Positions 7,316 to 60,879 are shown, numbered from the stretch's first letter. The stretch is DNA of 64,000 nucleotides from an uncultured Anaerolineales bacterium (GCA_964419495.1 CAYQQX010000008.1:163-64162), one strand, 5' to 3'. Notes: generated by a model not told the origin, from the letters alone. Numbers and translations: made by a program.

Positions 7316-7738
7316 ATGAATAACAAAAAAAGAAAAGAAATGGCTGCCATAGTACGAACAATAGCAACAGAATCTATCCGTAGTTCGGGAGACAGACTTG
7401 TGTTGGGCAGGCCCAATGATTGCATTCAAAATGCTCTGGACTATGGTGGTTTTTTCATTGATGCAGGGCCAGAAGTCATAAACATTCTTGATCAGGCGGG
7501 AATTGATCCAGCAATCGTTTATATTGAAGCGCTGAAAATAAAAATGGAAATGGGAATTCCGCGTGTTGATTTCATAAATATAAACCACGACGCGCAATTG
7601 AGTAAACAGGTGGATGATTGGAATGCCGATCCTTCAATTGCTATTCAGCAAATGCAATGGATGATCAAGAATGCTGGTGAATACGGATATCAAAGAAAGG
7701 GTGACAGTTGGATATTGAATGATGAGCAATCTGACTGA
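7316..7738 (+). CDS. hypothetical protein (140 aa)
   Basis: An AT-rich ORF with AAAAGGA upstream. It ends 9 nt before cpaB. I recognise no family. Confidence 0.5.
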   Translation: MNNKKRKEMAAIVRTIATESIRSSGDRLVLGRPNDCIQNALDYGGFFIDAGPEVINILDQAGIDPAIVYIEALKIKMEMGIPRVDFININHDAQLSKQVDDWNADPSIAIQQMQWMIKNAGEYGYQRKGDSWILNDEQSD

Positions 7739-7747
7739 AATCCAACC

Positions 7748-8410
7748 ATGCCCCCTCGCTCCCCCCTAACCACCCCTGACTGGCAGGCCGCTGTCCGTCG
7801 GCGCACGCAGTTCTACCTGCTGATCGCCTTCTTTCTGGCGGTCTTGTTTGGCGTGCTGGTTTTCCAGTTCTTCATGCAGCAGCGCGCTGCCCAGCCAGAG
7901 GTACTCACCAAGGCCGTCTTCGCTAACCAGGAGATCCCCATGGGGGAGGCCATCACTGCTGAAATGCTGGTGGAGCGCAATGTGCCCGGCGAGGCCGTGC
8001 CGCCGCTGCATTACAGTTTTATCGAACAGGTCGTAGGGCGGGTGACGCTCTACCCCCTGGTGGCCGGCGAGGTGATCCTGCCCGGTAAGCTGCTGGGCGA
8101 TACCGGTGGACCCGTTGCGCAGCGCTGTCCGTCTGGGTATTGGTGTATCAGCATCCCGGAGGCGTGGTTCGTAGCCACCCCGCCTGATCTGGCCGAAGGC
8201 GACAGCCTTGAGATCGCCGCGGTGCAGCCCGGCAACCCGGCCGATGAAGCTGGGTATATCGCCACCGAAGTGCTGGTCGTGGCCCTGCCCCATGGGGGTG
8301 AGGGCAGTGCTTATATACTGGCAGTCGATGACCAGGAGGCCTTGTCGATTTTGTACGCCCATGCCAATGAATTTAAGTTGCTGGTGCTGCTGCGCCCGGC
8401 GGGGAGTTAG
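7748..8410 (+). CDS. cpaB: Flp pilus assembly protein CpaB/RcpC-like (SAF domain)
   Basis: An N-terminal TM helix (FYLLIAFFLAVLFGVLVFQFF) is followed by a SAF-like segment (IPMGEAITAEMLVERNVP...VAGEVILPGKL). The gene is first in the tad gene order. Confidence 0.75.
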   Translation: MPPRSPLTTPDWQAAVRRRTQFYLLIAFFLAVLFGVLVFQFFMQQRAAQPEVLTKAVFANQEIPMGEAITAEMLVERNVPGEAVPPLHYSFIEQVVGRVTLYPLVAGEVILPGKLLGDTGGPVAQRCPSGYWCISIPEAWFVATPPDLAEGDSLEIAAVQPGNPADEAGYIATEVLVVALPHGGEGSAYILAVDDQEALSILYAHANEFKLLVLLRPAGS

Positions 8411-18300: not shown

Positions 18301-19923
18301 ATGGTGGACTATGATGTCATCGTCATCGGTTCTGGCGCGGGTGGGTTAGCAGCTGCTGTGCCCCTGGCTCAGGCGGGGATGAAAGTGCTGGTATGCGAGC
18401 AGCATGAAGTGCCTGGTGGGTGGACGCACTCATTTACGCTAGAAGGATATCGCTTTAGCCCGGGAGTGCACTATGTGGGTGGATTACATCCAGGCGGATC
18501 GCTGCGCAGGAAATACGAAGGTTTGGGTGTTTCCCAGGATTTAGCTTTTTGCGAAATCAACCCCGATGGCTACGATCACATGTTCATTGGCGAAGAGCGC
18601 TTCGATATTCCCAAAGGTCGCGATAACTATGCCAATCGCTTGAAAGAACGCTTTCCCCACGAGGCCACGGGCATCGATGGCTATATGGAAGCCGTAGCCA
18701 ATATGATAGAAAATCTAGAGAGCATTGCCCGGGGAACAAGGGGTGAACAGGCGGCAGCGATCCCCTCGGTGATGCGCTGGGCCATGAAGTCGGGGCGGGA
18801 GTTGATTGAGCACCATGTCTCTGATCCGCTGTTGGTGGCCATTCTGTGCGGCCAGGCCGGGGATCATGGTATGCCGCCTTCCGAAGTGTTATCTTTCTTG
18901 CATGCCGGGATTACCCACCACTATTTTGAAGGTGCATACTTCCCTTTGGGGGGTGGATTCGCCATCCCGCGCGCCTTTGTACGTGCCCTAAAGCGGGCTG
19001 GCGGAGAAATCCGACTTAACACTGAAGTTGATCAAATTTTACTGGAAGGGGATCGGGCCATCGGTGTGCGCCTGGTAGATGGGAGTGAAATCCGCTCGAA
19101 GTATGTCATCAGCAACGCGGATCCTGAAGTCACTTTTGGTAAATTGGTCGGTCGTGAGCATATCAGCGAAAAGCTGCGCCGCAGATTAGATAAGACGAAG
19201 TATTCCACATCGGCATTGAGCCTGTTCTTCGCTGTGGATATGGATCTGCGTGCCGCGGGGTTGGATTCAGGGAATTTCTGGTTCTACGACCACGACGATA
19301 TCGATGAGCTCTACCGCCTAGGGCGCACGGATAACGCCCTCACCGCAGATTACCCCCCGATGATGTTTATGACGGCCACCACACTAAAAGATCCCTCCAA
19401 GATGCACAGCGGACACCACACTTGCGAGGCCTTTACCTTTGTTGGCTATGACGCCTTCAAGAAATGGGCGCATGAAAAATCTGGGGAACGATCTTCAGGG
19501 TATCAGGGTTTGAAGGAAGACCTGTCTTGGAAGATGTTCAAAGCCATCGAGAAACGTGTCCCCGGGATCAGTGACCACATCGTTTTCTGGAACCTGGGCA
19601 CACCTCTGACCAATGAGCACTATATCAATGTCACCCGTGGAAGTTTGTACGGTATTGAGAAAAATCGCCGCCAAGTCGGCCCCAGGGCTTTTCCCGCTCA
19701 AACTGAATTTGAAGGCCTGTTGATGTGCGGAGCCAGCACTTCTAACTTCGGTGTTTCAGGGGTCACATCTACGGGGTTACAGGCGGCAAGTTCTATTCTT
19801 AATTGCTCTACCAGTGACTTGCTAAATCAAAACGGTCCTGAGTTGCAAATCTATCCTTCTGATGATATTTCACAATGGCCGGAGAATCTGCAAAAACGTA
19901 TAAAGTCTAGAGTTGAACGTTAA
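18301..19923 (+). CDS. phytoene desaturase (CrtI)-family FAD-dependent oxidoreductase
   Basis: Dinucleotide fold DYDVIVIGSGAGGLAAAVPLAQAGMKVLVCEQH. Length and C-terminal pattern fit the CrtI-like family. The ATG at 18301 has GGAGG 5 nt upstream. Confidence 0.8.
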   Translation: MVDYDVIVIGSGAGGLAAAVPLAQAGMKVLVCEQHEVPGGWTHSFTLEGYRFSPGVHYVGGLHPGGSLRRKYEGLGVSQDLAFCEINPDGYDHMFIGEERFDIPKGRDNYANRLKERFPHEATGIDGYMEAVANMIENLESIARGTRGEQAAAIPSVMRWAMKSGRELIEHHVSDPLLVAILCGQAGDHGMPPSEVLSFLHAGITHHYFEGAYFPLGGGFAIPRAFVRALKRAGGEIRLNTEVDQILLEGDRAIGVRLVDGSEIRSKYVISNADPEVTFGKLVGREHISEKLRRRLDKTKYSTSALSLFFAVDMDLRAAGLDSGNFWFYDHDDIDELYRLGRTDNALTADYPPMMFMTATTLKDPSKMHSGHHTCEAFTFVGYDAFKKWAHEKSGERSSGYQGLKEDLSWKMFKAIEKRVPGISDHIVFWNLGTPLTNEHYINVTRGSLYGIEKNRRQVGPRAFPAQTEFEGLLMCGASTSNFGVSGVTSTGLQAASSILNCSTSDLLNQNGPELQIYPSDDISQWPENLQKRIKSRVER

Positions 19924-19934
19924 ACGTTTAATCT
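19893..19934. repeat. degenerate heptamer array (NNNAACG/TTNAACG)
   Basis: aaaaacg tataaag tctagag ttgaacg ttaaacg tttaatc. It overlaps the stop of the CrtI-like gene. Confidence 0.6.
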
Positions 19935-19957
19935 TCAGCTCAATGCAGGCAGATATT

Positions 19958-20374
19958 ATGGTTGCGATTACACGTTTTGAAGAAATTCAAGCCTGGCAAA
20001 CTGCTCGACAGTTGACAAATCTAGTTTATGATTTTGCTGATTTGAGCGCTTTTGCCAAGGATTTTGGATTGAAAGATCAGATACGTAGAGCATCAGTCTC
20101 AGTGATGAGCAATATTGCTGAAGGGTTTGAAAGCCATACGCAAGCGCTGTTTATCAATTATTTGGGGAGAGCAAAGGCATCTGCAGGAGAAGTTCGGTCG
20201 CAATTGTATATTGCGCTTGACAAGGGATACATAACCCAGGAACAATTCAACGAAGCTTACGAATTGGCCGACAAGGCTTCTCGTCAAATATACCGTTTTA
20301 TGGTTTACCTTGAATCTCAGCCGAATGCTCGTCGGATCAGAGAGAATAATGTGGAGTACAATCTTGAACGGTAG
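19958..20374 (+). CDS. four-helix-bundle protein (23S rRNA intervening-sequence protein family, TIGR02436 type)
   Basis: FEEIQAWQTARQLTNLVYDF...DQIRRASVSVMSNIAEGFES....F..YLGRAKASAGEVRSQLYIA is the family signature. Start chosen at MVAITRFEE. Confidence 0.85.
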   Translation: MVAITRFEEIQAWQTARQLTNLVYDFADLSAFAKDFGLKDQIRRASVSVMSNIAEGFESHTQALFINYLGRAKASAGEVRSQLYIALDKGYITQEQFNEAYELADKASRQIYRFMVYLESQPNARRIRENNVEYNLER

Positions 20375-28373: not shown

Positions 28374-28408
28374 GATGAATAGTGAATTTTGAATGATCAA
28401 TTTTGAAT
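28374..28408. repeat. heptamer array (NNTGAAT x5)
   Basis: gatgaat agtgaat tttgaat gatcaat tttgaat. It ends at the stop codon of the four-helix-bundle gene. Confidence 0.75.
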
Positions 28409-28755
28409 TATCTTTGTTTGCTTGATGTGGTTTTTATGCTCGCATTGATTATGCGACAAAGCTCATCAACTTCTTTGGAAGCAAACCTTAACACATCATC
28501 GGATAGCAACTTGCTTCTGGAAATTATTTTTAGCCATACTCGTGACTCATTCAATTCTTTTAGGCTATGAATAAAATCACGAGCACTTTCGGCACCGCGT
28601 GCCTCCGCGTAATGAGCAGCTGGTGCTGTGCCACTTCGGAGTAATTGATTGGCAATGTGTTTTCCCGCTGACGTTTTCGGTAAATCATTGCTCACTTTAA
28701 TGATCTCAACGGCTAATCCAATAAGCCTTTCTTCAATATCATCACCTTTCGCCAT
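28408..28755 (-). CDS. four-helix-bundle protein (23S rRNA IVS protein family)
   Basis: LIGLAVEIIKVSNDLP....GKHIANQLLRSGTAPAAHYAEARGAES..DFIHSLKE..ES..WL. Confidence 0.85.
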   Translation of the reverse strand: MAKGDDIEERLIGLAVEIIKVSNDLPKTSAGKHIANQLLRSGTAPAAHYAEARGAESARDFIHSLKELNESRVWLKIISRSKLLSDDVLRFASKEVDELCRIINASIKTTSSKQR

Positions 28756-43327: not shown

Positions 43328-45067
43328 ATGACATCACAGCAGCTAAATTTGGGGGAACTGAAACCTGTTCTTGAAAAGTTTGCACCAGGCGGGCGAAACC
43401 AATTATTACCGGTACTTTGGTCTGCCCAAAACATCTATGGTCACCTTTCTGAACCGGTTGTAGTTGCCATTGGCAAGGCGCTCAAAGTGCCGCTGGCGGA
43501 TATTTACGGCGTCATCGAGTTCTATACCATGTTCTATAAGGAACCAGTTGGGGAGACCATCGTACGCATTTGTGTTAGCCCGGTTTGTACGCAGCGGGGT
43601 AGCCCAGAGATTCTCGATAGCGTATGTGAGCATTTTGATATCAAGCCTGGAGAAACTACCTCGGATAGTAAATATATGATCGAGGCGGTGGAATGCCTGG
43701 GTTTATGCGACTTTGCGCCCTCCGCCCTGGTGGGGGATGTGCCGGTCGCTCTCGATGTGGGTTCTGATCCCCAAAGTTGGATACTGTCTCCAAAGCCGGC
43801 CCCCTTAGGACATTTGGAAGGTGACCCTTATTGGTTACTGGGCAGCTGCGGTCAAGTTGATCCTGCTGAAGTCAAGGATTATGAAGGCTGCGGTGGATTC
43901 ATGGGCTTGAAGAGAACGCTGCAAAATCCCCCTGAATTAGTCATCGAAGAGATAACCAAGTCCGGATTATTAGGACGTGGGGGCGCGGCCTTTCCCACGG
44001 GCTTGAAATGGAAGTTTGCATCGCAGGCATCAGGAGAACCCAAATACATGGTTTGCAATGCCGATGAGTCTGAACCGGGAACCTTCAAAGATCGCGTGCT
44101 GATGGAGGGCTATCCCCTTTCGATCATTGAGGGCATGGTGATCGCTGCCTATGCTGTGGGCAGTCACTATGGCTATCTGTATATCCGCGGCGAATATATG
44201 CGGGCGCAGAGCATCATGGGTAAGGCGCTGGAAAATGCCCGGGCAACAGGATATCTCGGGAAGAATATATTGGAGACAGGCTTTGACTTTGACATCGAGA
44301 TGCGTTCAGGCGCCGGGGCTTACGTTTGCGGCGAAGAGACGGCTTTATTCGAATCCATCGAAGGCAAGCGCGGCTTCCCTCGGTTGAAGCCACCCTACCC
44401 TACAGATCAGGGCCTGTTTGGCAAGCCCACGGATATCAACAACGTTGAAACCTTGTGCGCGGCCACCTGGATCATGGCTAACGGTGCCGAAGCCTTTCGG
44501 TCGAAGGGTACCGAGGGGTCTGCGGGCACAAAGGTTTATTGTCTTTCTGGAGATATCGTCAAACCCGGCGTCTATGAATTGCCCTTGGGTATCACCTTGG
44601 GTGAGATCATCCAAAAAGCTGGCGGGGTTGAAGGAGAATTGCGTGGGGTGCTGATTGGCGGCGCTGCAGGAACTTTCGCTGGACCCGATGACCTTGATTT
44701 GGTGATGAGCTTCGAGGGTTTGGCGGAGAATAAATATTTCTTGGGCTCCGGCGTGGTAAATGTGATCAACACCGAGCGAGATATGAAGCAAATATTGTAC
44801 AGCCTGGCGCATTTCTTTGCCCACGAGTCCTGTGGCAAGTGCTTCCCCTGTCAACTGGGCACCCAGCGACAATTGGAGATCATGGATAAGGCTGTCCAAG
44901 GCCAGCTTACCAATGCTGATCTGGTTGCCCTGGAAGATGTCGGTTTTGCCATGGCTGAGACATCGATTTGCGGCGTTGGCCAAATGGCTTCCACGGCTAT
45001 TCTGTCGTCCTGGGAAAAATGCCCGGATGTATTTGGTTTAGAAGATAGTTTCAATGGACAAGCATAA
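43328..45067 (+). CDS. fused NuoE-like (2Fe-2S) / NuoF-like (FMN, NAD, 4Fe-4S) diaphorase subunit, formate dehydrogenase beta type
   Basis: N-terminus C..PVC....(E)CLGLC. NuoF part: GRGGAAFPTGLKW, CNADESEPGTFKDR, ESCGKCFPCQLG. Confidence 0.85.
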   Translation: MTSQQLNLGELKPVLEKFAPGGRNQLLPVLWSAQNIYGHLSEPVVVAIGKALKVPLADIYGVIEFYTMFYKEPVGETIVRICVSPVCTQRGSPEILDSVCEHFDIKPGETTSDSKYMIEAVECLGLCDFAPSALVGDVPVALDVGSDPQSWILSPKPAPLGHLEGDPYWLLGSCGQVDPAEVKDYEGCGGFMGLKRTLQNPPELVIEEITKSGLLGRGGAAFPTGLKWKFASQASGEPKYMVCNADESEPGTFKDRVLMEGYPLSIIEGMVIAAYAVGSHYGYLYIRGEYMRAQSIMGKALENARATGYLGKNILETGFDFDIEMRSGAGAYVCGEETALFESIEGKRGFPRLKPPYPTDQGLFGKPTDINNVETLCAATWIMANGAEAFRSKGTEGSAGTKVYCLSGDIVKPGVYELPLGITLGEIIQKAGGVEGELRGVLIGGAAGTFAGPDDLDLVMSFEGLAENKYFLGSGVVNVINTERDMKQILYSLAHFFAHESCGKCFPCQLGTQRQLEIMDKAVQGQLTNADLVALEDVGFAMAETSICGVGQMASTAILSSWEKCPDVFGLEDSFNGQA

Positions 45068-45872
45068 CCCTGGGGCTGTGCCCGCTGCCTGGCACGAATA
45101 TAAAAATGGTTGGTATCAAGCCGATGGAGAAGTCATCGAAGAGGCCTTGATCACCATTTATGTCAATGGCGCTGAGTTGGCTACCATTATGGCCTCGCCA
45201 CTCCAGCAAGATGTATTGGCTCTTGGTTTTATGAAGAACGAAGGCTTGATCGAAAGCCTTGCTGAAATAGAGATTCTTTTTGTGAGTAAATTGGGCTGCT
45301 GTGTGGATGTCTGGCTGAACAGGGAATTCGAGAAACCCAAGCGTGTGATCATCACCAGCGGCTGCGGGGGCGGCGTGACCTTCGACGACCCCAGGGTGGG
45401 TATTGAACCTGTTGAAAGTGAAATGCGTTTGGAGCCTGGCAAACTAAGGGAAGCATTTCGCCGACTTCAACCGCCCAACAGTCTGTATGCGCGCTCGCGC
45501 GGCGTACACGCGGCTGGTTTGTTTGATCCGCTAGACGATGAATTGGTAGCTATTGTTGAGGATGTTGGCCGTCACAACACCATTGATAAAATTTCTGGTA
45601 TCTGCTTACAAGAAGCTATTGATCCCAATGGTCGCGTGTTATTGGTCACAGGACGCATCTCCTCAGAGATGCTGCGCAAGGCGGCGGTGATGGGCTGCCC
45701 GATAATTGCATCTCGCACCTCTCCCACTTCAATTTCCATCGAGATTGCGCAAGCCTGGAATATCACTTTGATCGGTTATGTTCGGGCTGGGCGGATGCGG
45801 GTGTACAGTTGCCCGGAGCGTATCAAATCCCTGGAGATGGTTGAAGTTAATGATATTGGTATCACAGAATAG
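45054..45872 (+). CDS. fdhD: formate dehydrogenase accessory sulfurtransferase FdhD
   Basis: Motifs SGCGGGVTFDD, EDVGRHNTIDK, VTGRISSEMLRKAAVMGCPIIASRTSPTS. Confidence 0.85.
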   Translation: MDKHNPGAVPAAWHEYKNGWYQADGEVIEEALITIYVNGAELATIMASPLQQDVLALGFMKNEGLIESLAEIEILFVSKLGCCVDVWLNREFEKPKRVIITSGCGGGVTFDDPRVGIEPVESEMRLEPGKLREAFRRLQPPNSLYARSRGVHAAGLFDPLDDELVAIVEDVGRHNTIDKISGICLQEAIDPNGRVLLVTGRISSEMLRKAAVMGCPIIASRTSPTSISIEIAQAWNITLIGYVRAGRMRVYSCPERIKSLEMVEVNDIGITE

Positions 45873-45882
45873 AGAGAATCAT

Positions 45883-46593
45883 ATGTCTGAAGAGTACGTG
45901 CAGCTTACTATCGATGGCACTCCCATCAGCGTCCCTGCCGGGACAACGCTGTTGGATGCTGCCAAAGATGTTGATGTTGAAATCCCAGTAATTTGTTATT
46001 TTGCTCATACTACGGCAAATGGTTTGTGCCGTTTGTGCGTTGTTGAAGTCGAAGGTGCCCGTATGCTGCAGGCCGCCTGTGTAACGACAGTGCAAGAAGA
46101 TTCTGTTGTGCAAACGCGTTCTCCCAAAGTGGAGCGTGCCCGACGTACCATATTGGAAATGCTAGTTTCCACGGTGGATATCTCCGAAAGCCCCGAATTG
46201 CAGGAATTGGTTGTAGATTATCAATGTCTTCCCGAACGTTTCGATGGGGGTAAGAAGCGCGATCCAGCGATCATCGATGATAACCCGGTTTACCTGCGAG
46301 ATTACTCACAATGTGTGATGTGCTGGCGCTGCGAGCAGGTTTGCGCCGACGATGCCCAATTCACCTACGCCCTAAACTTCAGCGGCCGCGGCTTCGATAC
46401 ACAGATCGCAACTTTTTTCGATAAACCGCTCACTGAGACAACCTGTGTATTTTGCGGAAACTGTATTGGCGTCTGTCCCACGGGGGCGTTGAAAGCCAAA
46501 CGCGAGCATCTGATTGAGCAGGGCGTCGCGCCAGAGAAGGTGATGGAGTTTACGCGCTTGAAGGGGAAGAAGAAAAAGGAAAATTCAAAATAA
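45883..46593 (+). CDS. Fe-S domain protein corresponding to only the N-terminal third of an FdsA/NuoG-type formate dehydrogenase alpha subunit (likely truncated)
   Basis: 2Fe-2S fold ([28 protein letters not shown]) and ferredoxin-type clusters ([27 protein letters not shown]). It ends with a Lys-rich tail (GKKKKENSK) where intact homologues continue into T.C.YCGVGC. Confidence 0.7.
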
Positions 46594-49234: not shown

Positions 49235-51916
49235 ATGACAAATCAAATCAAATTTACAATTGACGGACAGGAGATCGTTGCCCAGGATGGACAGAATATT
49301 CTCGACGCTGCGCTGGCCAATGATATTTATATTCCCCATCTATGCCACCACCCAGACTTGAAACCGGTGGGAGCATGCCGATTATGCGGTGTGGAAATCG
49401 ATGGCGGAAGCATGACCATGAGTTGCCTGGAACCAGCGCGAGAAGGGATCGATGTCAAGACCGACAGCCCGGTGATTTATCAATCCCGCAAGATCGCCAT
49501 GGAACTGCTCATCGCCGACCACCACATGGACTGCCTGGCCTGCGCCGCCGCCAATGACTGCGACCTGCTGACAGTTTCGGCCTATCTGGGCATTGATTCA
49601 GAACGGTTGGAACGGCTGCGCAAAACTGTACGTGATCTCCCCATCGACGCATCCAACCCCTTTTTCCAGTTTGATCCCAATAAGTGTGTGATCTGCGGCA
49701 TCTGCGTGCGGACCTGTGACGAAATTGTGGGACTGGGAGCATTAGGATTTATTGATCGCGGTGTTAGTACGACAGTTGGCACGTTTGGAAACAAACCCTT
49801 TGTTGAGTCGATATGTGAATCCTGTGGCGAGTGTGTTGTTCGATGCCCGGTGGGAGCCCTGGCTCCCAAGACACCCAAATTTGCCGCCCGCGAAGTACAG
49901 TCAACCTGCGTCTACTGTGGGGTGGGCTGCGGTATCTATCTGGGTGTGGTGGGTGACAAAGTTGTCAATGTGCGCGCTGACCGTGAGCGCCCGACCAATG
50001 AAGGCAGTCTATGCGTCAAAGGTCGCTACGGCTTCAACTTCGTCAACCATCCTGATCGACTGACCAAACCGCTGATCAAGAAAGACGGTAAGCTTGTAGA
50101 ATCTGAATGGGACGAAGCGCTTGAATTAATTGCCACCAAGTTTGCTGAGAGTAAAGGCGACAAATTTGCCGCTCTGGCAAGTGCCAAGTGCACCTTAGAA
50201 GAAAATTACCTGATCCAAAAATTTACCCGCGCAGTGATGGGGACGAACTCCGTCGACCACTGCGCCCGGCTTTGACACAGCCCTACTGTGGCCGGTCTGG
50301 TCACATCATTTGGCTCGGGCGCAATGACCAACTCCATTAAGGAGATTGATGGCGCAAAAACAATTTTCGTGATTGGGGCTAACACTACCAACGCTCACCC
50401 GGTGATTGGACACCGGATGCGGCGTGCGGCCCAAAACGGAGCCACTCTGCTGGTTGCCAATCCCAAAGAGATCGATCTGGCTCGTTCAGCTCATACCTTC
50501 ATTCAGCCAAAACCTGGCAGCGACACCGTCCTGCTGATGGGCATGTGCCGCTATATTCTCGAAGAAGGGTTGCAGGATCAAGCCTTCATGGACGAACATT
50601 GCGAGAATTTTGATGAGTTCAAGGCATCACTCGATGCCTTTACTCCAGAATTTGTGGAAGAAATTACCGGTGTACCATGGGAACAGGTTGCCAAGGTGGC
50701 GCACACCTACGCTACCAATAAACCGGCTTCTTTGTTCTACGCCATGGGGATTACCCAACACACTCATGGTACCGACAATGTGATGGCAGTTGCCAACCTG
50801 GCAATGATAACCGGCAATATTGGCAAAGAGTCCACCGGAGTGAATCCGCTGCGCGGCCAGAACAACGTGCAGGGCGCCTGCGACATGGGGGGATTGCCCA
50901 ATGTCTATCCTGGCTACCAGAACGTCACACTCCCCGAAAACAAGGCCAAGTTTGAAAAGGCCTGGGGTGTGGAACTCTCCGATGAAATTGGCCTGACCCA
51001 TACCGAAATTTTCGATGCCATTTATGATGGCAAAGTTACGGCTCTGTACATGGTTGGGGAAAACCCGCTTCTGACTGAGGCCAATGCCAAACATGTTCGC
51101 GAAGCCATCGAAAATCCCGACCTGTTTTTCGTGGCCCAGGATATTTTCCTTTCGGAAACGGCTGAACTCGCAGATGTGGTGCTGCCTGCAGCCTCCTTCG
51201 CGGAAAAGGATGGAACCAACACCAACACCGAACGCCGCGTCCAGCGGGTTCGCAAAGCGATCCCACCGCGGGGGGATTCCAAACCCGATTGGTGGATCAC
51301 CAGCCAGATCGCTCAAAAGATGGGCGAGCCTGGCTTTGATTTCTCAGAACCTTCGGAAATCATGGACGAGATCGCTTCAGTGACCCCCATTTATGGCGGA
51401 ATCTCTTACGAACGCATCGAAGAAGTCGGCTTGCAGTGGCCCTGCCGCGATGAGAGCGACCCAGGGACGCAGTACCTGCACAAGGGTAAATTTGCCCGCC
51501 CCAACGGTAAGGGCCAGTTCGTCCCCTTGGAATACAAGAAATCAGCCGAAATCGCAGATGCTGAATACCCATTGATCCTCACAACCGACCGCAGTCTGTA
51601 TCATTATCACTCTGCGACAATGACCCGGCGCGTAGCTGGCTTAGAAGAGTTGGACAGCAATGAGTGGCTGAAACTCAGCCCGGCAGATGCAGAACAGTTC
51701 GGTATCGAAGATGGTGAGTGGGTCGAGGTATATTCGCGACGAGGGAAAATCAAAGTTCGCGCCCAGGTCACGGATGTCTGTCCCTCGGGCGTCTGCTCAA
51801 TGACCTTCCACTTCCACGAAAGCCCCACCAACGAGATCACCAATCCCGCATTGGATCCTGTGGCAAAGATTCCTGAAACTAAGGTCACTGCTGTTCGAGT
51901 GGAAAAAGTGTCATAA
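49235..51916 (+). CDS. fdhA: selenocysteine-containing formate dehydrogenase alpha subunit (893 aa, U at codon 347)
   Basis: Track ORFs 49235..50275 and 50288..51916 share a frame and are separated only by TGA 50273-50275. Reading through gives [34 protein letters not shown], which matches E. coli FdhF VDCCARV-U-HGPSVAGL..GNGAMSN. N-terminal Fe-S domains and TCVYCGVGCG are present. Confidence 0.88.
50288..50304 (+). promoter_or_regulatory. SECIS-like hairpin for fdhA
   Basis: GUGGCC-GGUCU-GGUCAC starts 13 nt after the UGA. The GGUCU apical loop is the same as in the E. coli fdhF SECIS as I recall it. Confidence 0.65.
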
Positions 51917-52312: not shown

Positions 52313-54340
52313 ATGGAAGCTCAAAATCCCTTCATGGGAGTACATGGCTCGCATCAACAGCAGGAAGTTCGAGTGGGTGTCTATGTATGTCGTTGTGGAA
52401 CCAACATTGGGGGTATTGTAGATGTTGAACAAGTTGTAGATTTTGTTTCCAATTTACCTTGTGTGGCAGTTGCGCGAGAATATTCCTATATGTGTTCCGA
52501 TCCTGGTCAGGGAATGATAAAAGGGGATATCGAAGCACATGACCTTAACCGCGTAGTGGTGGCATCTTGTTCACCAATGATGCATGAAAGCACATTCAAA
52601 ACCGCCTGTTCAGAAGCTGGAATAAATCCATTTTTCTTCCAAATGACCAATATCCGAGAGCATGTCTCCTGGGTGCATTCTTCTGATCCTGTGTTAGCAA
52701 CCAAAAAGGCAAAAGATCTTGTATATGCTGCTGTCAATCGTGTTATTGAACATTTGCCTTTGGAAGAACGCCAATCGGATGTGAAGCAATCTGCATTAGT
52801 AGTTGGGGCTGGAATAGCCGGAATTGAGGCTGCATTACGAATTGCAGATTCAGGGAAGAAAGTTTACCTGGTAGAGAAGCAATCTGGGATAGGTGGGCAT
52901 ATGGCAAGATTATATAAAACCTTCCCAACGTTAGATTGTGCGGCTTGAATACTCACACCCAAAATGGTGTCCGTGGGACGCCACAAAAACATCACACTGC
53001 TTACTTACAGCGAAGTAGAGAGTGTCTCTGGGGTCGTGGGTAATTTCAAAGCAAAAATTCGTAAAAAGGCGAAATATGTAAATAGAGAATTATGCAATGG
53101 CTGCGGTACCTGTGTTGAAAAATGTCCGTGGAAAAATATACCGGACGAATTTGAATATGGTCTTAGCAACAGACCTGCTATTCACTTTCATTACAGCCAG
53201 GCTGTGCCCAAAATACCCGTTATTGATAAAGAGCATTGCGCATATTTCAAGAATGGAAAATGTAAAGCCTGCGAAAAATTTTGTCAGAGGGATGCTATAG
53301 ATTTTGAGCAAACTGATGAAATTATTGAAATTGACGTTGGTACCATAGTTTTAGCTACCGGTTTCAAAGATTTTGATCCCTCTGAATCCCCTCATTATGG
53401 CTATGGTACTTATGGAAATATATTGACTAGCAGAGAATTTGAACGCCTGATCAATACCAGCGGACCAACTTTAGGTGAGGTGCATCTCTCCAATGGAGAT
53501 AAACCAAAGCGGGTTGCGATTATTCATTGTGTTGGTAGTCGCGGGGATAAGAATCAATACTGTTCGCGAGCTTGCTGTATGTATTCGTTAAAACTGGCTC
53601 ACCTGGTCAGGTCTGTGATTGGAGCTGAGGTGGTTGAGTTTTACCGTGATATGCGCGCTTTTGGTAAAGAGTATGAATCTTTTTATGAGAAGGTGAGAGA
53701 AGAACAGGTTGAGTTTGTACGCTACGACAGAGATATTCAGGTTTCCAAGGTTGAAAACCAGCTAACCGTTGAAACTCAAAATTTATTTACAGGTGAAAAC
53801 CAAGCTGAGAAGGTAGACATGGTGATTCTCAGTACAGGCTTTGAACCACAAACCGATCAAAAGACGGTCGCCAGCACATTTGGAGTAAGCCTTAGCCCAG
53901 ATGGTTTTTTCCAGGAAAAACACCCCAAATTAGCCCCAGTTGAAACAGCAACAGATGGTGTATTCCTGGCGGGAGCATGCCAAGGTCCAAAGGACATCCC
54001 GGATTCAGTGGCCCATGGAAGTGCGGCCGCGGCGGCTGCTCTGGCTTTGATGGATGCTGGATCTGTAACCTTAGAACCCTACACCGCTTATATTGATCCT
54101 GAAAAATGCAGTGGCTGCCTGATATGTGCCAATAATTGCCCTTATCATGCAATTGATGTGGTTACCTCCAATGGCCACAAAGTATCTCAAATTAATGAGA
54201 TCTCTTGCAAAGGGTGTGGAACATGCGTGGCCGCTTGCCCAGCTGGCGTTGCCAGACAGCATGGCTTTACAAACGACCAGATCATCGCTGAAATTGAAGG
54301 TTTACTCAAGATGGGACTTGTTGAGGAGACAATGGTATGA
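52313..54340 (+). CDS. hdrA: selenocysteine-containing HdrA-family flavoprotein (675 aa, U at codon 212)
   Basis: Track ORFs 52304..52948 and 52964..54340 are in one frame, separated by TGA 52946-52948. Read-through gives KTFPTLDCAA-U-ILTPKMVSVGRHKN, the conserved HdrA motif where Cys homologues have C. It has the N-terminal VGVYVCRCGTNIGG, FAD fold ALVVGAGIAGIEAAL and ferredoxin domains. Confidence 0.85.
52965..52983 (+). promoter_or_regulatory. SECIS-like hairpin for hdrA
   Basis: UGGUGUCC-GUG-GGACGCCA, an 8-bp stem including one G-U pair, starts 17 nt after the UGA. It lies in a 59-nt block identical to the hdrL copy. Confidence 0.55.
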
Positions 54341-57300
54341 ATCGATCAAAACCTCGCATTGGTGCATATATCTGCCGTTGTGGTACCAATATAGCGGATA
54401 CGGTAGATGTTGAAGAGGTGGTTGCCGACACCAAGAAATTAAAGAATGTTGTACTGGCGCGCGAATATAGCTACATGTGCTCAGATCCAGGTCAGGATTT
54501 GATCAAAGAAGATATAAAAAAACATAAACTGAATCGGGTGGTGGTTGCATCCTGTTCACCCTTGATGCATGAATTTACTTTTAGAAAAGCATTGGAAGCA
54601 GGCGGGCTAAATCCATTTTATTTTCAGATGGCGAACATCCGCGAACAATGCTCCTGGGTGATAAACGACCAGAAAATGGCGACGAAGAAAGCCCAAAAAA
54701 TGGTGGATGCTGCCGTACGGCGCGTGTATTATCATCAACCATTAGATCCCCGTTCAGTTGAAATGGCATCCAGTGTGATGGTGGTAGGAGGTGGGATTGC
54801 TGGGATTGAAGCTTCCCTAAAGATTGCAGATGCAGGAAAGAAGGTTTATCTAGTCGAGCGGGAATCAGCTATTGGCGGACATATGGCCCAGCTTTACAAA
54901 ACCTTCCCGACTCTCGATTGTGCGGCTTGAATACTCACACCCAAAATGGTGTCCGTGGGACGCCACAAAAACATTGAACTGCTAACATTCAGTGAAGTTG
55001 AATCTGTTTCTGGATATGTAGGAAATTACCAAGTTAAGGTTCGCCAAAAACCCCGATATGTTCATGAGGATCTCTGCACAGGCTGCGGCCAATGCGCTGA
55101 AGTTTGTCCGGTGAATGTTCAAAATGCTTTTGAATTAGGTTTAAACCACCGCAAAGCGATCTTCAGGAATTCCGATCAGGCCACACCAAATGCTTTTGTC
55201 GTTGATAAACGCGGTGTTGCTCCTTGCAGAGATGCTTGTCCGGCGGATCAGCGAGCGATGGGCTATATTTCCTTGGTCAGGCAAAAGCGTTACGCAGATG
55301 CCTACTGGGCCATCCGGCGGGAGAACCCATTCCCTTCAGTGTGCGGTCGAGTGTGCAACCGAAAATGTGAAGATGAATGCAGCCGGAGTGATTATGATGA
55401 ACCCGTAAACATTATGGCCATTAAAAGATTTGTTGCCGATTGGGCCTATGACCATAGGGATGAATTGGCCTCAATGGAAGACAAATCGCGTGTAGGTACA
55501 CCTTTTGAAAAGGAACCCCAACCCACTGGGAAACGGATTGCCATTATTGGTGCTGGACCGGCTGGGCTGACTGCCGCATTAGATTTGGTTCGGTTGGGGC
55601 ACAGTGTAAAGGTTTTCGATAGCTTCTCCCAAGCAGGGGGGATGATACGTGTAGGGATTCCACCGCACCGGTTACCTTACGAGAGGTTGGAATGGGAGAT
55701 CGAACAGATCAAGGCAGAAGGGGTTGAGATTCAACTCAATACAAGAATAGATGATATTCCTGCTTTGCTTCAAGAAGGATATGAGTCGGTTTTGATCGCA
55801 ACTGGAGTGCATGATGCTATCAAACTGCCAATCCGTAATTCTAATCACCCAGATAACTGGTTGAGTGTCGATTTCCTCCGCAGAGTATTTTTGGGAGAAG
55901 AAATTAACCTCTCCGGGAGGAAGGTGATTGTCTTAGGTGCCGGGGATGTTGCTTTGGATGTTGCCCGCACCGCAATTCGCCTGGGAAAACCTAAGGTAAA
56001 AATTGTTTGCCGCGGTATGCGAGCTTCGGAACATGAAATCAAAGCTGCCAAGGAAGAAGGCGTTGAAATTGTACCCAGCAGAGTATTCAAAAAAGTGGTG
56101 GCGAACAAGAAAAGGATCAAAGGCATCGAGTGCTTGAAAGCTGAAGTAGGGGGGATTGTCGATGGCCGTCGAATTGTACAAGAAATGCCGGGTACTGAAC
56201 ATGTGATCAAGGGTGACATTGTGATTTGGGCTTTGGGCCAACAGCCAGATTACTCGTTTTTACCTTGGGAAGGCAGCATTAATACGCAGTATCCCAAAGG
56301 AATTCTGGCGGATGAAAATTTGATGACAACACACCCAGGTGTATTTGTAGCTGGAGATGCCAGACAAGGTGCAACCTCATTTGTCGTAGACGCAATTGGT
56401 GAAGGACATCATGTAGCTCGATGTATTGACCGATATTTGCGAGGAGAAGAAGGGATACCTGAACCACAATTGCACGAAGAAGTTGCCCGACTTGAGCCTG
56501 ATGAAATTGAGCAAAAGATATCCCAAGGCATTGTTACAGAAAAACCAAGGCAAACTACAAAATCCATACCACCCATAGAGCGGGAAAATAATTTCAATGA
56601 GGTTGATCTTGCTTTCTCTGAAGTGGAAGCATTGACTGAGGCTTCTAGGTGCCTTGAATGCGGCGTATGCGCAGAATGCCTTGAATGTGTTTCGGCTTGT
56701 GAAAAAGGGGCTGTTGATCAGGAAATGAGAGACAAGGTAGAAGATTATACGGTTGGTGCGATTATCCTGGCAACTGGCTTTAAAGATTTTGACGCTAAGA
56801 AAGCGCCAGAATATGGAGCAGACTTGCCAGATGTGATAACTGCCTTGGAATTTGAACGCTTAATCAACCCAAGTGGTCCAACCAAGGGTCAGGTCTTAAC
56901 CAGTAAAGGGAAACCGCCAAAACGAGTTGCGATCTTACATTGTGTCGGCAGCAGGAACGAAAAATACCATAAGTATTGCTCAAGGGCTTGTTGTATGTAT
57001 TCCTTGAAATTGGCACAACTTGTCCATGAATATGTGGATGCAGAAGTGTTTGAAATTTATCGCGATATGCGGACATTTGGTAAGGGTTATGAAGAGTTTT
57101 ATAATCGAGTGTCCGATGAGGGTGTGAATTTCTATCACGGTTTGGTTAACAATGTTAGTCAGCAGAATGGGAATTTGTTAGTACAGTGGGACGAGAATTT
57201 TTATGACGAACCAGATTCTGTAGAAGCGGATATGGTGATCTTGGCGACTGGTTTTGAGCCACAAGATGATACGGCAAAAGTTGCCAGTATTTTTGGGGTC

Positions 57301-57714
57301 AGTCGCAGCCCTGATGGATTTTTCTTAGAAAAACATCCAAAGCTGGGTCCAGTTGAAACCTCTACCGATGGGATATTTCTGGCCGGAGCCTGCCAAAGCC
57401 CTAAAGATATCCCCGATAGTGTTGCTCAAGCAGGAGCTACTGCGGCAGCAGCCTTATCTTTGATTGACCAGGGCAATGTTTTGCTAGACCCATCTGTTGC
57501 AAGGGTGACAGCCAGCATTTGTGCTGGTTGTGGGCAATGTGTTTCTGCCTGTCCATATGAAGCTGTCGCACTAAATGAAAATGTAGCGAGTGTGAATCCG
57601 TACCAGTGTAAAGGATGTGGCACCTGTGCGGCAACATGCCCAAACAAAGCTATGAGCTTAATTCATTATGAAGATGAACATCTGATTGCTGAGTTAGATG
57701 CTTTATTGAGGTAG
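54337..57714 (+). CDS. hdrL: selenocysteine-containing HdrL-type large HdrA homologue with an inserted GltD/NfnB-like NAD(P)H module (1125 aa, U at codon 198)
   Basis: Track ORFs 54337..54930 and 54946..57714 are in one frame, separated by TGA 54928-54930 (KTFPTLDCAA-U-ILTPKMVSVGRHKN). The insert has NPFPSVCGRVCNRKCEDEC, IAIIGAGPAGLTAALDL, VLGAGDVALDVART and VFVAGDA. The HdrA sequence resumes afterwards (ILHCVGSR, CSRACCMYSLK, C-terminal ferredoxins). Its start overlaps the hdrA stop (ATGA). Confidence 0.82.
54947..54965 (+). promoter_or_regulatory. SECIS-like hairpin for hdrL
   Basis: The sequence is the same as 52965-52983. Confidence 0.55.
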
Positions 57715-57724
57715 GAGCTGAATT

Positions 57725-58186
57725 GTGTTTGAACCAAAAATTATTGCATTTCTATGTACCTGGTGTAGCTATACGGGTGCTGATCTGGCAGGGACATCTC
57801 GCAAGGCTTCTCCCTGGAATATTCGCGCAATCCGGACACCATGTTCAGGACGCGTTCCCCCTGAACTGGTCATTCGGGCATTTGATGAAGGTGCAGATGG
57901 GGTGATTGTATTAGGATGCCATATTGGTGAATGTCATTATGATACTGGCAACCATCGTACTGCAAAAAGGATACCTGTGCTAAAGAATTTATTATCTTTC
58001 GTAGGCTTAGAACCAGAGCGCTTACGTTTGGACTGGGTTTCCGCTTCGGAAGGGGATCGTTTTTCCAGGATAGTTACCGAATTCACTGATACTATCCGTG
58101 AATTGGGGGCTAACAATTGGGGTGATGCCTACCGAGATGAATTTTATGCTGCTTTGGTTGGCGAGGTATTTGAGCAGGAGGTCTAA
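57725..58186 (+). CDS. flxD: MvhD/FlxD-type [2Fe-2S] protein (methyl-viologen-reducing hydrogenase delta subunit family)
   Basis: Motifs IIAFLCTWCSYTGADLAG, IRTPCSGRV, GADGVIVLGCHIGECHY. GTG start with AGGAG upstream. Confidence 0.85.
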   Translation: MFEPKIIAFLCTWCSYTGADLAGTSRKASPWNIRAIRTPCSGRVPPELVIRAFDEGADGVIVLGCHIGECHYDTGNHRTAKRIPVLKNLLSFVGLEPERLRLDWVSASEGDRFSRIVTEFTDTIRELGANNWGDAYRDEFYAALVGEVFEQEV

Positions 58187-58190
58187 TTAT

Positions 58191-59039
58191 ATGAGCATAG
58201 ATTTGCTTCAAGAACACGCAAACAACATCATCTCTTCCGGACAGGTTGACTGCATAATTGGATATGAAGTAGGTCCACGTCAATGGACGAGGCCAGCGTT
58301 CATTTATGAGCCTGATGAAGTGAGGAAATTGGTGTGGAATCAAAATTGTACACATAATCTTACCACCTACTTGCCTTCAAAATTATCTGAAGAAAAAGAG
58401 CGGGTTGCTGTCGTATTAAAGCCGTGTGACGCAAAATCGGTTAATATGCTTTTGGCCGAAAATAAGATCGTTCGCCAACAAGTTCATATCATTGGGATGG
58501 TATGTAATGGGATGTTAGATGATGACGGGGGAAAACAGAGTCGCTGCATAGCGTGCAGTCAGCAAAAACCGAATGTCTATGATTTTCTAATTGGTGATTT
58601 AGATACAGAGGCAATTGATTCTACGAGCTTGAATGGAAACAAGTTTTTGGCGGAGATCGAAGAGTTGCTTCCTCCAGAGCGGGCTGAATTTTGGATAGAA
58701 CAATTCGATCGCTGTATCCGATGTTATGCCTGCCGCCAGGTATGCCCTTTATGTAATTGCCCCACTTGTCTGTATGAACGTGATGATTCTTTGTGGGTTG
58801 GAATGAAAACTGGAATAAAAGAAAAAAGGGCCTTTCATCTTGGACGAGCGATGCACCTGGCTGGTCGTTGTGTGGGGTGCAATGAGTGTGAGAGAGTTTG
58901 TCCAATGGAAATACCCATCAGCTTATTAAACCAAACCCTGGCAAAAGAGCTCCAGGCTCAATTCGATTATATTGCTGGAAATGAAGTGTTGCTCTCTCCA
59001 ATTATTGGGCCCACCCTTGAAAAGGAACAAAAAGCATGA
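58191..59039 (+). CDS. Fe-S protein, FlxC-like (2x CxxCxxCxxxCP-type clusters)
   Basis: Start MSIDLLQEH (58191) with GGAGG upstream. Clusters CIRCYACRQVCPLCNC and CVGCNECERVCP. It sits after the MvhD-like gene, as in flxDCBA. Confidence 0.7.
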   Translation: MSIDLLQEHANNIISSGQVDCIIGYEVGPRQWTRPAFIYEPDEVRKLVWNQNCTHNLTTYLPSKLSEEKERVAVVLKPCDAKSVNMLLAENKIVRQQVHIIGMVCNGMLDDDGGKQSRCIACSQQKPNVYDFLIGDLDTEAIDSTSLNGNKFLAEIEELLPPERAEFWIEQFDRCIRCYACRQVCPLCNCPTCLYERDDSLWVGMKTGIKEKRAFHLGRAMHLAGRCVGCNECERVCPMEIPISLLNQTLAKELQAQFDYIAGNEVLLSPIIGPTLEKEQKA

Positions 59040-60037
59040 AATTCATATCAAGTCATGAGTTAATCGCTTTGTTGCAGAATATATTGAATGAGCAGATTTT
59101 ATATGCCCCTGTGTTGGTTGGGGGAGTGGAGCTATATCAAGAGATAGAGCATGTGGAGGATATTTTCTGGAACTTCACACGTCCGGGTAAATCTGTGAAA
59201 GAGGTGGTTTTTCCACAGACCGAAACATTGATGGTTATAAAAGAGAGCGACAAAAATTTAACGGTTCATGAAAATATTTCAAACGAGAAAACCGTTATTT
59301 TTGGGGTGCGACCTTGTGATGCTCGTGGGATGCAAGCACTAGATTCAATGTTCTTCCATACAGATCCTATTGATAGTTACTACGCTGCGCGAAGGAATAA
59401 TTCAGTATTGATTGGGCTGTCTTGTTCTGAAATGTTGGATACATGTTTTTGCACAAGCATGGGAGGCATGCCTGATGATCCGAGTTGTATGGATATTATG
59501 CTGACAGTGGTTGATGATGGCTATCTGGTCGAGGTTATGAGTGATGCCGGGGCAAATTTGCTAGATGGTATAGAGTTGAGCGATAAGGCTATAGACAAAC
59601 CAAAACCGCCCATTCAAAGCGTGGTTGAAGTTCCAGAAGTTGAAAACATTCAAAACATTTTTGCTTCAAAATTATGGATGCAGGAAGGCGAGCGGTGTTT
59701 AAGTTGTCGAATATGTGCCTATGTTTGTCCTACCTGTCGTTGTTTTGATATTCAGGATGAGAACCTTTCTTCCGCGAATGGCAAAAACCAGAGCATCAGG
59801 TTGCGGTGTTGGGATAGCTGTAGTAGCCATGCATATAGACAGATTGCTGGAGGACATAATCCCAGAGAGATTAAGGCCGACCGACTTCGCAACCGAATTT
59901 TGTGTAAGTTGAAATATTATGCAGAGCAATACGGCCCGCAAGCATGTACCGGGTGTGGGCGATGTATCTCTGCTTGCCCGGTTAATATTGATATCACAGA
60001 GATAATGGGGGCTTTAATGGAAGTGGAGGCAATATGA
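59036..60037 (+). CDS. Fe-S protein, FlxB/AsrA/sulfhydrogenase-beta-like
   Basis: Motifs GVRPCDARG, CFCTSMG, CLSCRICAYVCPTCRCFD, CTGCGRCISACP. Confidence 0.75.
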   Translation: MKFISSHELIALLQNILNEQILYAPVLVGGVELYQEIEHVEDIFWNFTRPGKSVKEVVFPQTETLMVIKESDKNLTVHENISNEKTVIFGVRPCDARGMQALDSMFFHTDPIDSYYAARRNNSVLIGLSCSEMLDTCFCTSMGGMPDDPSCMDIMLTVVDDGYLVEVMSDAGANLLDGIELSDKAIDKPKPPIQSVVEVPEVENIQNIFASKLWMQEGERCLSCRICAYVCPTCRCFDIQDENLSSANGKNQSIRLRCWDSCSSHAYRQIAGGHNPREIKADRLRNRILCKLKYYAEQYGPQACTGCGRCISACPVNIDITEIMGALMEVEAI

Positions 60038-60879
60038 TCCAGAGACCAGGGAATGACTCATTGCAACCATTGATAGGGAAATTAGTTCAAGTTCAAGACC
60101 TTGCACCGGAAATTAAAATGTTTGGTGTTGAATTGGAAAATGGTGCTGGTCAACATTTTAAGAATTACGAGCCCGGACAGTTTGCATTCATCTCTGCCTT
60201 TGGGACCGGTGAGGCTCCTTTTGGAATCGCATCGACTTCTGATCGAGGAAATATCCTTGAATTTGCTGTTCAACGTTTAGGATCAGTTACAACTGCCTTG
60301 CATGAAATGTCTGAAGGTGACCACGTTGGTATCCGAGGGCCCTTAGGAAATGCTTTCCCGATGACAATGTTTGAAGGTAAAGACCTTCTGGTAATTGGTG
60401 GCGGTATTGGGGCTGCTCCATTACGCCCAGTGATCCATTCGGTGCTGGATAATCAAGAAAAATATGGAGAATTGAATATTCTGATGGCTGCCAGAGACCC
60501 TTCTCTGCATGTCTTTCATGATGAATATGAATCATGGCAGGAGAGCAATAACACCAATTTGCATCTCATAGTGGATCAGGCTGATGATAACTGGGAACAT
60601 GATGAAGGCTTGATTACAGAATTGATCCAAAAGGTTGCTCCATCTGCTAAAGACACTGTGGCAATTGTTTGTGGTCCACCAATCATGATTTACTACGTTA
60701 GCAAGTTGCTGAATGAGATTGGATTTATTGGAGGGCAGCAGTATGTTACTCTGGAAGCAAGGATGCATTGTGGGATAGGCAAATGTGGCAGATGTAACAT
60801 AGACAAAACATTGATTTGCGTCGACGGTCCTGTTTTTTCTATGGATCAAGTGGATGCTTTTTCAGAGAGTTATTTATAA
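60034..60879 (+). CDS. FAD/NAD(P)-binding subunit with a C-terminal 2Fe-2S, FlxA/AsrB/PyrK-like
   Basis: Ferredoxin-reductase fold (GQFAFISAFG, LLVIGGGIGAAPLRP) and the terminal cluster MHCGIGKCGRCN. Confidence 0.8.
   Translation: MIQRPGNDSLQPLIGKLVQVQDLAPEIKMFGVELENGAGQHFKNYEPGQFAFISAFGTGEAPFGIASTSDRGNILEFAVQRLGSVTTALHEMSEGDHVGIRGPLGNAFPMTMFEGKDLLVIGGGIGAAPLRPVIHSVLDNQEKYGELNILMAARDPSLHVFHDEYESWQESNNTNLHLIVDQADDNWEHDEGLITELIQKVAPSAKDTVAIVCGPPIMIYYVSKLLNEIGFIGGQQYVTLEARMHCGIGKCGRCNIDKTLICVDGPVFSMDQVDAFSESYL

Follow-up and report, generated by a model that had tools for sequence, protein, structure and literature searches.

The window analysed here, a 64-kb metagenome scaffold (GCA_964419495.1, CAYQQX010000008.1:163-64162; the whole stretch of 64,000 nucleotides), comes from an uncultured Anaerolineales bacterium and carries two adjacent genes of the HdrA family, hdrA and a longer HdrL-type gene, each broken by an in-frame TGA. 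The best explanation of the whole, to which we assign a probability of about 0.9, is that both are selenoprotein genes whose UGA is read as selenocysteine (Sec) and that a hairpin just downstream of each UGA is a bacterial selenocysteine insertion sequence (SECIS). UGA and hairpin lie within a 59-nt block that is identical in the two genes. The nearest genomes are metagenome-assembled genomes (MAGs) of Anaerolineae/Anaerolineales, with no more than 72% amino-acid identity, and the comparison set consisted of 80 related loci (L-numbered), mostly from Anaerolineae. The features on which the argument depends are the following:

52313..54340, plus strand: hdrA, 675 codons, HdrA-family flavoprotein/Fe-S protein, predicted Sec at codon 212
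52946..52948, plus strand: predicted Sec-UGA codon of hdrA (U212), motif LDC-A-A-U-ILTPKM
52965..52983, plus strand: putative SECIS hairpin of hdrA, 8-bp stem UGGUGUCC/GGACGCCA, loop GUG at 52973-52975
52934..52992, plus strand: 59-nt block, copy in hdrA, maximal exact match to 54916..54974
54337..57714, plus strand: HdrL-type gene (HdrA/GltD fusion), 1125 codons, predicted Sec at codon 198
54928..54930, plus strand: predicted Sec-UGA codon of the HdrL-type gene, Cys/Sec alternation in homologues
54947..54965, plus strand: putative SECIS hairpin of the HdrL-type gene, same sequence as the hdrA hairpin
54916..54974, plus strand: 59-nt block, copy in the HdrL-type gene, maximal exact match to 52934..52992

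The first-pass annotation of this DNA had reported in-frame TGAs at 52946-52948 and 54928-54930, and both the coordinates and the read-through peptide are as it described. The frame continues beyond the TGA in both genes, with ...LYKTFPTLDCAA-U-ILTPKMVSVGRHKNI... spanning the break, and read-through gives ...KTFPTLDCAA-U-ILTPKMVSVGRHKNI.... The domain architecture continues as well: Pfam detects flavin adenine dinucleotide (FAD)/Rossmann and Fer4 domains on either side of the hdrA TGA, and residues 15-665 of the read-through product align with the solved HdrA structures 8RVU, 5ODC and 7BKB (phmmer against the PDB; E 1e-180 to 1e-208). [quoted passage not shown] The hdrA gene ends at a true TGA that overlaps the ATG of the HdrL-type gene (ATGA).

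Alternation of Cys and Sec at one position is the defining mark of selenoprotein families. Such alternation is seen here: across the 80 related loci, 134 genes have TGA at the homologous codon and 15 have TGC or TGT. The alignment with Cys- and Sec-type homologues, which had been proposed as a check, thus finds a conserved Cys/Sec position, as was claimed for this site of HdrA. In the hdrA product, U212 aligns with Cys197 of HdrA (5ODC chain A), a residue through which one HdrA subunit of the dimer ligates the N-terminal [4Fe-4S] cluster of its partner (PMC9012536). TGA is also the ordinary stop codon of 7 of the 30 Pfam-supported genes of the window, hdrA included, and therefore the recoding is site-specific and the genetic code has not been reassigned.

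Four Chloroflexota genomes (L045, L047, L051 and L059) have Cys in both hdrA and hdrL, and these copies form one clade within each paralogue group of the neighbor-joining tree. By this placement, both paralogues switched state together, as would be expected if the whole Sec trait had been lost or gained. A different set of contigs, labelled Candidatus Bathyarchaeia (L079, L082, L084 and L086), encodes Cys-type HdrA proteins 56-58% identical to the window protein, and these group in the tree with the Cys-type copies of Myxococcales and Armatimonadota.

The hairpin that follows each UGA, UGGUGUCC-GUG-GGACGCCA, is both the minimum free energy (MFE) and the centroid structure, with an energy of -11.9 kcal/mol. 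It starts at the 17th nucleotide after the A of the UGA (52965 and 54947), in agreement with the 8-bp hairpin that the first-pass annotation had placed 17 nt after the UGA and proposed to check by folding. The published model of the bacterial SECIS requires a loop of 3-9 nt, an upper stem of 4-16 bp, 16-37 nt between UGA and loop and an MFE of at most -7.5 kcal/mol, with a G within the first two loop positions, mostly as G[G/U]N (PMC13188914). Both hairpins agree with all four published criteria: the loop GUG has 3 nt and opens with G followed by U, the stem has 8 bp, and UGA and loop are 24 nt apart at the energy given above.

The most informative evidence comes from synonymous sites, which were counted in 100 genes (two paralogues in each of 50 other genomes). 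Within the stem these sites are fixed or nearly so: +23 G, +26 C and +32 A each occur in 100/100 genes, +35 C in 96/100 and, at a two-fold site, +38 C in 92/100. Outside the stem, variation is free at the four-fold sites -19, -16, -13, -4, +11 and +14; the third loop nucleotide (+29) may be G, T or C and is never A in hdrA. The fixed stem codons are not the preferred ones, since in the same genes GTG accounts for 44% of Val codons, TCC for 23% of Ser, GGA for 14% of Gly, CGC for 45% of Arg and CAC for 57% of His. The 15 Cys-type homologues, in contrast, encode the peptide MV(S/A)VG(R/Q)H by other codons and lack the hairpin; their mean fold energy is -6.3 kcal/mol, with different folds, versus -11.5 kcal/mol in the 134 Sec-type genes. 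Base pairing is retained in 97.6% of the alignment cells: one pair changes from G:C to A:U in three distinct sequences, and one stem pair changes from U:G to U:A (16 sequences) or C:G (6 sequences). Conservation of the hairpin as RNA is therefore specific to the genes with a UGA, and the RNA-level constraint that had been claimed for a SECIS is borne out by near-invariant stem sites next to variable neighbours and by Cys-type genes without the hairpin. These comparative data support the interpretation that the hairpin acts as a bacterial SECIS under RNA-level selection.

One hairpin of the same geometry was noted in a Cys-type hdrA of a Chloroflexota MAG (the region of L045:6574), with 7/8 pairs, loop GUC, an energy of -11.8 kcal/mol and U:A replaced by G:C. 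This hairpin may be the relic of a SECIS that outlived the exchange of Sec for Cys, or GC-rich codon usage may have produced it incidentally.

Several observations weigh against the Sec/SECIS interpretation or limit its reach. The energy of the hairpin is unexceptional relative to shuffled sequences (z ~ -1.2), and therefore folding alone can neither support nor refute a SECIS, the support being comparative. Covariation is thin, with 4/8 pairs invariant and a double change in only three distinct sequences; this is because the stem hardly varies, and we have put the weight on synonymous-site invariance and on the contrast between Sec- and Cys-type genes. In the L067-L083 clade, a change from Arg to Gln introduces a mismatch into the lower stem, so that universal conservation is limited to the loop and the upper 5 bp. 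No Rfam family matched the hairpin, either at gathering thresholds or at permissive E-values; hits to eukaryotic long non-coding and small nucleolar RNA families were rejected as chance-level (E 4-10). Finally, selA, selB and selD were absent from the 64-kb window in a Pfam scan of essentially all large open reading frames (ORFs), and a tRNA-Sec was found neither in the window nor in the 60 of the 80 related loci that were scanned (L007-L066), some of which contain only a tRNA-Arg. Genes for Sec-containing formate dehydrogenase and SelB have been reported in single-cell genomes of Anaerolineales (PMC4959059).

An indirect indication of Sec decoding is provided by a third gene of the same operon, whose Sec-UGA lies 2.7 kb upstream of the hdrA UGA:

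49235..51916, plus strand: fdhA, formate dehydrogenase catalytic subunit with a NuoG-like N-terminus (Pfam)
50273-50275, plus strand: predicted Sec-UGA of fdhA, classic motif CARL-U-HSPTVAGL
50287-50305, plus strand: fdhA hairpin, 7 bp, loop GGUCU, 18 nt after UGA

The fdhA hairpin has z = -3.2 in its 90-nt context, and the same TGA and hairpin are present in L071 and L074-L077. This predicted selenoprotein gene suggests that the organism decodes UGA as Sec. It adjoins hdr in only 7 related loci and in none of the Cys-type hdr loci, so that Sec-fdhA co-occurs with Sec-hdr. Gene callers cut fdhA into products of 346 and 530 amino acids.

Two further TGA codons of the window were considered as Sec codons and rejected. 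The TGA at 7736, between two ORFs in the same frame (7316-7738 and 7748-8410), has no hairpin downstream, and the second ORF has an ATG of its own; this ORF encodes a SAF-domain (CpaB-like) protein of a Tad pilus cluster, and the TGA probably serves as a normal stop codon. The other candidate, the TGA at 23680, is spurious, since the minus strand carries real genes at this place.

The presence of the hairpin in both genes raises a second question: does RNA-level selection explain the whole of the 59-nt identity? The match, claimed to be 100% over 59 nt, is indeed exact and maximal, and it comprises 12 nt before the UGA, the UGA itself, a 16-nt spacer, the hairpin and 9 nt downstream. Over the remainder of the alignment the paralogues share 59% nucleotide identity with no other identical run reaching 14 nt, and the flanks of the block diverge codon by codon, in frame. 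Where both proteins have the same degenerate amino acid, the codons match in 17/17 cases within the block and in 137/341 (40%) outside it (p ~2e-7). The RNA constraint covers only ~20 of the 59 nt, and the other ~39 nt vary between genomes. Within a genome the hdrA and hdrL blocks differ at a median of 5 positions and are non-identical in 49/51 genomes, and therefore identity over 59 nt is not needed for function. The caution of the first-pass annotation, that local gene conversion could also produce such a block, was consequently apt.

We attribute the ~39 nt of extra identity, with moderate confidence and on the evidence of sequence comparison, to recent short-tract gene conversion, which would have started at the hairpin that the tandem paralogues share. 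Full identity of the block occurs within 2/51 genomes (the window and L031) and in 1/2550 cross-genome hdrA-hdrL pairs (Fisher p = 0.001). The nearest relatives (L007, L009 and L012) have ATT...ACC after the UGA in hdrA, and ATA...ACA with GAA after the stem in hdrL, and these paralogue-specific signatures are erased in the window. The two genes themselves are old, hdrA and hdrL forming separate clades that predate the radiation of these genomes (neighbor-joining tree). Across the 51 Anaerolineae genomes, within-genome similarity of hdrA and hdrL peaks at the UGA/SECIS region: codon identity within genomes shows a normalised excess of 0.27 over codons -4..+15, compared with 0.087 in the flanks, a bootstrap difference of 0.18 (0.12-0.24), which points to locally enhanced concerted evolution near the recoding site. 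Over related loci L007-L078, the third loop nucleotide (52975/54957) is alike in the paralogues at a frequency of 0.67 within and 0.38 across genomes, and the codon after the stem (52985-52987/54967-54969; Lys, Glu or Pro) at 0.57 within and 0.22 across genomes. The shared post-stem residue and loop nucleotide suggest either concerted evolution or tuning to the genome's own SelB. More tentatively, and a little short of an even chance in our judgement, the SECIS could be a permanent homology island that seeds repeated short-tract conversion, or the elements could co-evolve with SelB, so that ~60 nt evolve in concert. Literature on SECIS-centred gene conversion was sought in the searched library, where nothing relevant was found.

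Three copies of Sec-type HdrA-family genes within 14 kb were also observed in some genomes (L037 at 7345 and 10780, L073 at 4458 and 7765, L024, L041 and L054). Recent duplications are indicated by the identity of two of the three copies across the 85 nt compared.

Conversion has its own difficulties. The erased signatures are mosaic, the 5' part of the window block being hdrL-like and the codon after the hairpin hdrA-like, and therefore two events or one more complex event would be needed. The direction of conversion, estimated from paralogue-specific site frequencies, is likewise mosaic and weak (~ -1.6 bits towards hdrL-like for the hdrA copy), and the ancestral hdrA and hdrL blocks, as inferred, differ at only ~3 sites.

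Selection without conversion is one alternative: both SECIS contexts, from the neighbours of the UGA and the spacer to the third loop nucleotide and the codon after the stem, would be tuned to the same lineage-specific SelB and ribosome, and the paralogues would converge. The within-genome excess is indeed highest near the recoding signal (the third loop nucleotide, the codon after the stem and the codons beside the UGA), and the exclusion of A from the third loop position of hdrA indicates that this site is not fully free. However, the paralogues of most genomes differ, by the median of 5 positions given above, and keep ATT versus ATA after the UGA, so strict matching is not required. Moreover, the fdhA SECIS of the same genome has another stem, loop length and spacing, which indicates that SelB tolerates diversity. 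We consider this account unlikely, though not to be neglected.

Chance together with shared codon bias is a somewhat poorer candidate, and we regard it as rather improbable. With the hairpin fixed by the SECIS, only the dozen or so semi-conserved synonymous sites that are left would have to coincide in a low-GC genome. Only 3-4 sites distinguish the window hdrA block from the hdrL blocks of L012 and L009, some within-genome excess (0.02-0.12) is present everywhere as a baseline, and several of the shared states end in A/T, which fits the lower GC content of the region (42-47%). Chance convergence in this genome, at saturated synonymous sites and with a shared A/T-leaning codon bias, thus retains some weight against conversion. 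Nevertheless, full-block identity is found in only one of the 2550 cross-genome pairs as compared with two of the 51 within-genome pairs, the local excess is ~3x that of the flanks with a bootstrap interval that excludes zero, and the shared CTC, CCC and GCG codons do not end in A/T.

Far less probable, and in effect refuted by the comparison of homologues, is the reading in which the hairpin is no SECIS, the block results from gene conversion alone and the TGAs are real stops of split genes or pseudogenes. Gene callers do split both genes at the TGA, and the lack of an Rfam match would fit. Yet the TGA and the hairpin are conserved in the 134 genes from ~70 genomes, in two paralogue clades older than the divergence of the genomes, and conversion within a genome cannot account for conservation between genomes. 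Cys codons replace TGA in the 15 homologues, the break would cut through the FAD-binding domain of a protein alignable with solved HdrA over its whole length, and synonymous invariance is limited to the stem and absent from Cys-type genes. An assembly artefact, that is, a repeat collapsed or copied by the assembler, is conceivable for any metagenome scaffold but has a negligible probability here, since L002, from the metagenome assembly of another sample, matches the window at 100% identity along 11,759 nt (11.8 kb) including both blocks, related MAGs share the architecture, and the flanks diverge codon by codon in frame; the block is therefore not an artefact of assembly.

Taking Sec recoding with a SECIS as the preferred reading, the following mechanism can be proposed. 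The UGA codons at 52946 and 54928 would be decoded as Sec during translation, with the 8-bp G-U-N triloop hairpin, its loop 24 nt past the UGA inside the coding sequence, serving as the bacterial SECIS. By analogy with established bacterial Sec decoding, SelB with guanosine triphosphate and Sec-tRNA(Sec) would bind the hairpin loop and deliver Sec to the UGA of the paused ribosome. Sec would then stand in for the cysteine equivalent to Cys197 of methanogen HdrA and, if the methanogen structure is a guide, would ligate the N-terminal [4Fe-4S] cluster of the partner subunit. The N-terminal cluster cysteines C26, C28, C61 and C86 are invariant in both paralogues, and hdrA and the HdrL-type gene are probably translationally coupled through the ATGA overlap. 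The retained cysteines and probable co-translation make an HdrA/HdrL heterodimer with reciprocal Sec donation the likeliest arrangement, although the proposed heterodimer and Fe-S-ligand roles lean on the methanogen structure, which counts against pressing them far. Flavin-based electron bifurcation would be the task of such a heterodimer together with MvhD and Flx-like subunits, with the Sec-containing formate dehydrogenase as a possible further partner. Selection on the RNA keeps the 20-nt hairpin near-invariant across Anaerolineae, and the SECIS does not need the remaining ~39 nt of the block.

The HdrL-type gene differs from hdrA by an insert of ~450 residues that forms a GltD/NfnB-like flavin module for reduced nicotinamide adenine dinucleotide (phosphate), NAD(P)H, with Fer4_20 and Pyr_redox_2 domains (Pfam) at residues 97-492 of the C-terminal part; outside the insert it is 57% identical to hdrA. 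Its architecture, an HdrA backbone with an inserted NAD(P)H/FAD GltD-like module and mvhD following at 57725, is that of HdrL. The genes that follow are:

57725..58186, plus strand: mvhD/flxD, MvhD-type [2Fe-2S] subunit (PF02662, E 6e-50)
58191..60879, plus strand: three genes resembling FlxC, FlxB and FlxA (Pfam domains)

The MvhD-type subunit is the usual electron-entry partner of HdrA, and the copy in the window is a complete ORF with no in-frame TGA. The three genes beyond it carry, by Pfam only, Fer4/FrhB-like domains, Fer4_22, and FAD_binding_6 with NAD_binding_1 and DHODB_Fe-S_bind, respectively; judged by these domains, the FlxC/B/A-like genes complete a Flx-Hdr-like module. No CCG-domain protein, as expected of HdrB/HdrC partners, was detected by Pfam among the neighbours at 41-64 kb. 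Since hdrBC is missing near hdrA, the cluster is described as an HdrA-like bifurcating module and not as a proven heterodisulfide reductase; another part of the genome could carry hdrBC. Upstream of hdrA are NuoE/NuoF-like genes and the formate dehydrogenase catalytic subunit, and farther upstream folD and fhs of the Wood-Ljungdahl methyl branch.

Some additional features of the window can be recorded. Upstream of the NuoE/NuoF/FdhA set, the region 43328-46593 contains, in this order, another NuoF-like gene with a NuoE-like domain fused to it, fdhD, and a gene for a short NuoG-like Fe-S protein lacking a molybdopterin domain; these genes look like a partial duplicate of the formate dehydrogenase diaphorase module. 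The '23S rRNA-intervening sequence protein' family (PF05635) is represented by two genes amid metabolic genes, at 19913-20374 (plus strand) and 28408-28755 (minus strand). An ORF of 1703 residues at 1394-6505 has a Peptidase_C39-like domain near its N-terminus as its sole recognisable part, and the stretch 2001-4000 has an odd composition (GC 58.5%, AT skew 0.21), suggestive of repeats or low complexity in the encoded protein.

The practical meaning of these results lies mainly in annotation. Gene callers split all three selenoprotein genes of the operon, as they do in at least 70 Anaerolineae MAGs; therefore annotations show HdrA, HdrL and FdhA in pieces, and both bifurcating enzymes and selenium dependence are under-counted in metabolic reconstructions of these bacteria, which are abundant in the subsurface and in wetlands. 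The near-invariant 21-nt string AUGGUGUCCGUNGGACGCCAC offers a simple marker of Sec-type HdrA in Anaerolineae. The position of the SECIS inside a highly conserved peptide makes it possible to separate RNA and protein constraint site by site, and the block adds a modest hint of concerted evolution around a recoding signal. What is known of Sec decoding and of HdrA is left unchanged: Sec-containing HdrA and HdrL have long been known, and the pair in the window is a further case of well-known recoding.

Among known systems, HdrA is a selenoprotein in methanogens (Methanococcus, Methanocaldococcus and Methanopyrus) and in bacteria including Syntrophobacter, Syntrophus, Moorella and Carboxydothermus (PMC1794560). 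It belongs to the more frequent bacterial selenoprotein families, with 16 bacterial genes counted in 2006, when tandem hdrA-hdrA arrangements and linkage to FrhD/MvhD were also already described (Zhang et al. 2006, PMC1794560). At the family level the window hdrA is the same protein; it differs in its host lineage, Anaerolineae (Chloroflexota), and in the lack of hdrBC in its cluster. No paper describing Sec-HdrA in Anaerolineae was found in the searched library. Archaeal HdrA genes have their SECIS in the 3'-untranslated region, unlike the in-frame bacterial hairpin of the window hdrA. HdrL selenoproteins, fusions of HdrA with glutamate synthase, were first defined in Desulfobacterium autotrophicum HRM2 (Strittmatter et al. 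2009, PMC2702500), where Sec-HdrL, the tandem of hdrL and hdrA, and linkage to mvhD and fdh were all described in 2009. The likeness to the window extends to the large Sec-HdrA with a GltD-like NAD(P)H insert, mvhD as the next gene, the tandem with hdrA and adjoining formate dehydrogenase genes; the phylum is another one, and the window has Flx-like genes after mvhD. The insert of the window HdrL could represent a fusion independent of that in D. autotrophicum.

As for the recoding signal, the hairpins resemble the bSECISearch consensus and the E. coli fdhF and Moorella SelB-SECIS paradigms in being stem-loops just past the UGA within the ORF, with G-U opening a small apical loop. They differ from the consensus in a loop at the minimum size (3 nt). 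The SECIS of E. coli fdhF has a bulged U, whereas the window stem is a perfect 8-bp helix without it. Relative to the SECIS of the window fdhA, the hdrA loop is ~5 nt farther from the UGA.

The gene cluster as a whole resembles in plan FlxABCD-HdrABC of Desulfovibrio, an NADH-dependent bifurcating module. The two share, as far as Pfam-based assignments reach, an MvhD (FlxD) protein, two Fe-S proteins and an FAD/NAD-binding protein beside hdrA. The window cluster departs from that module in lacking HdrB/C, in possessing two HdrA-type subunits, one of them with an NAD(P)H module of its own, and in its linkage to an NAD-type formate dehydrogenase.

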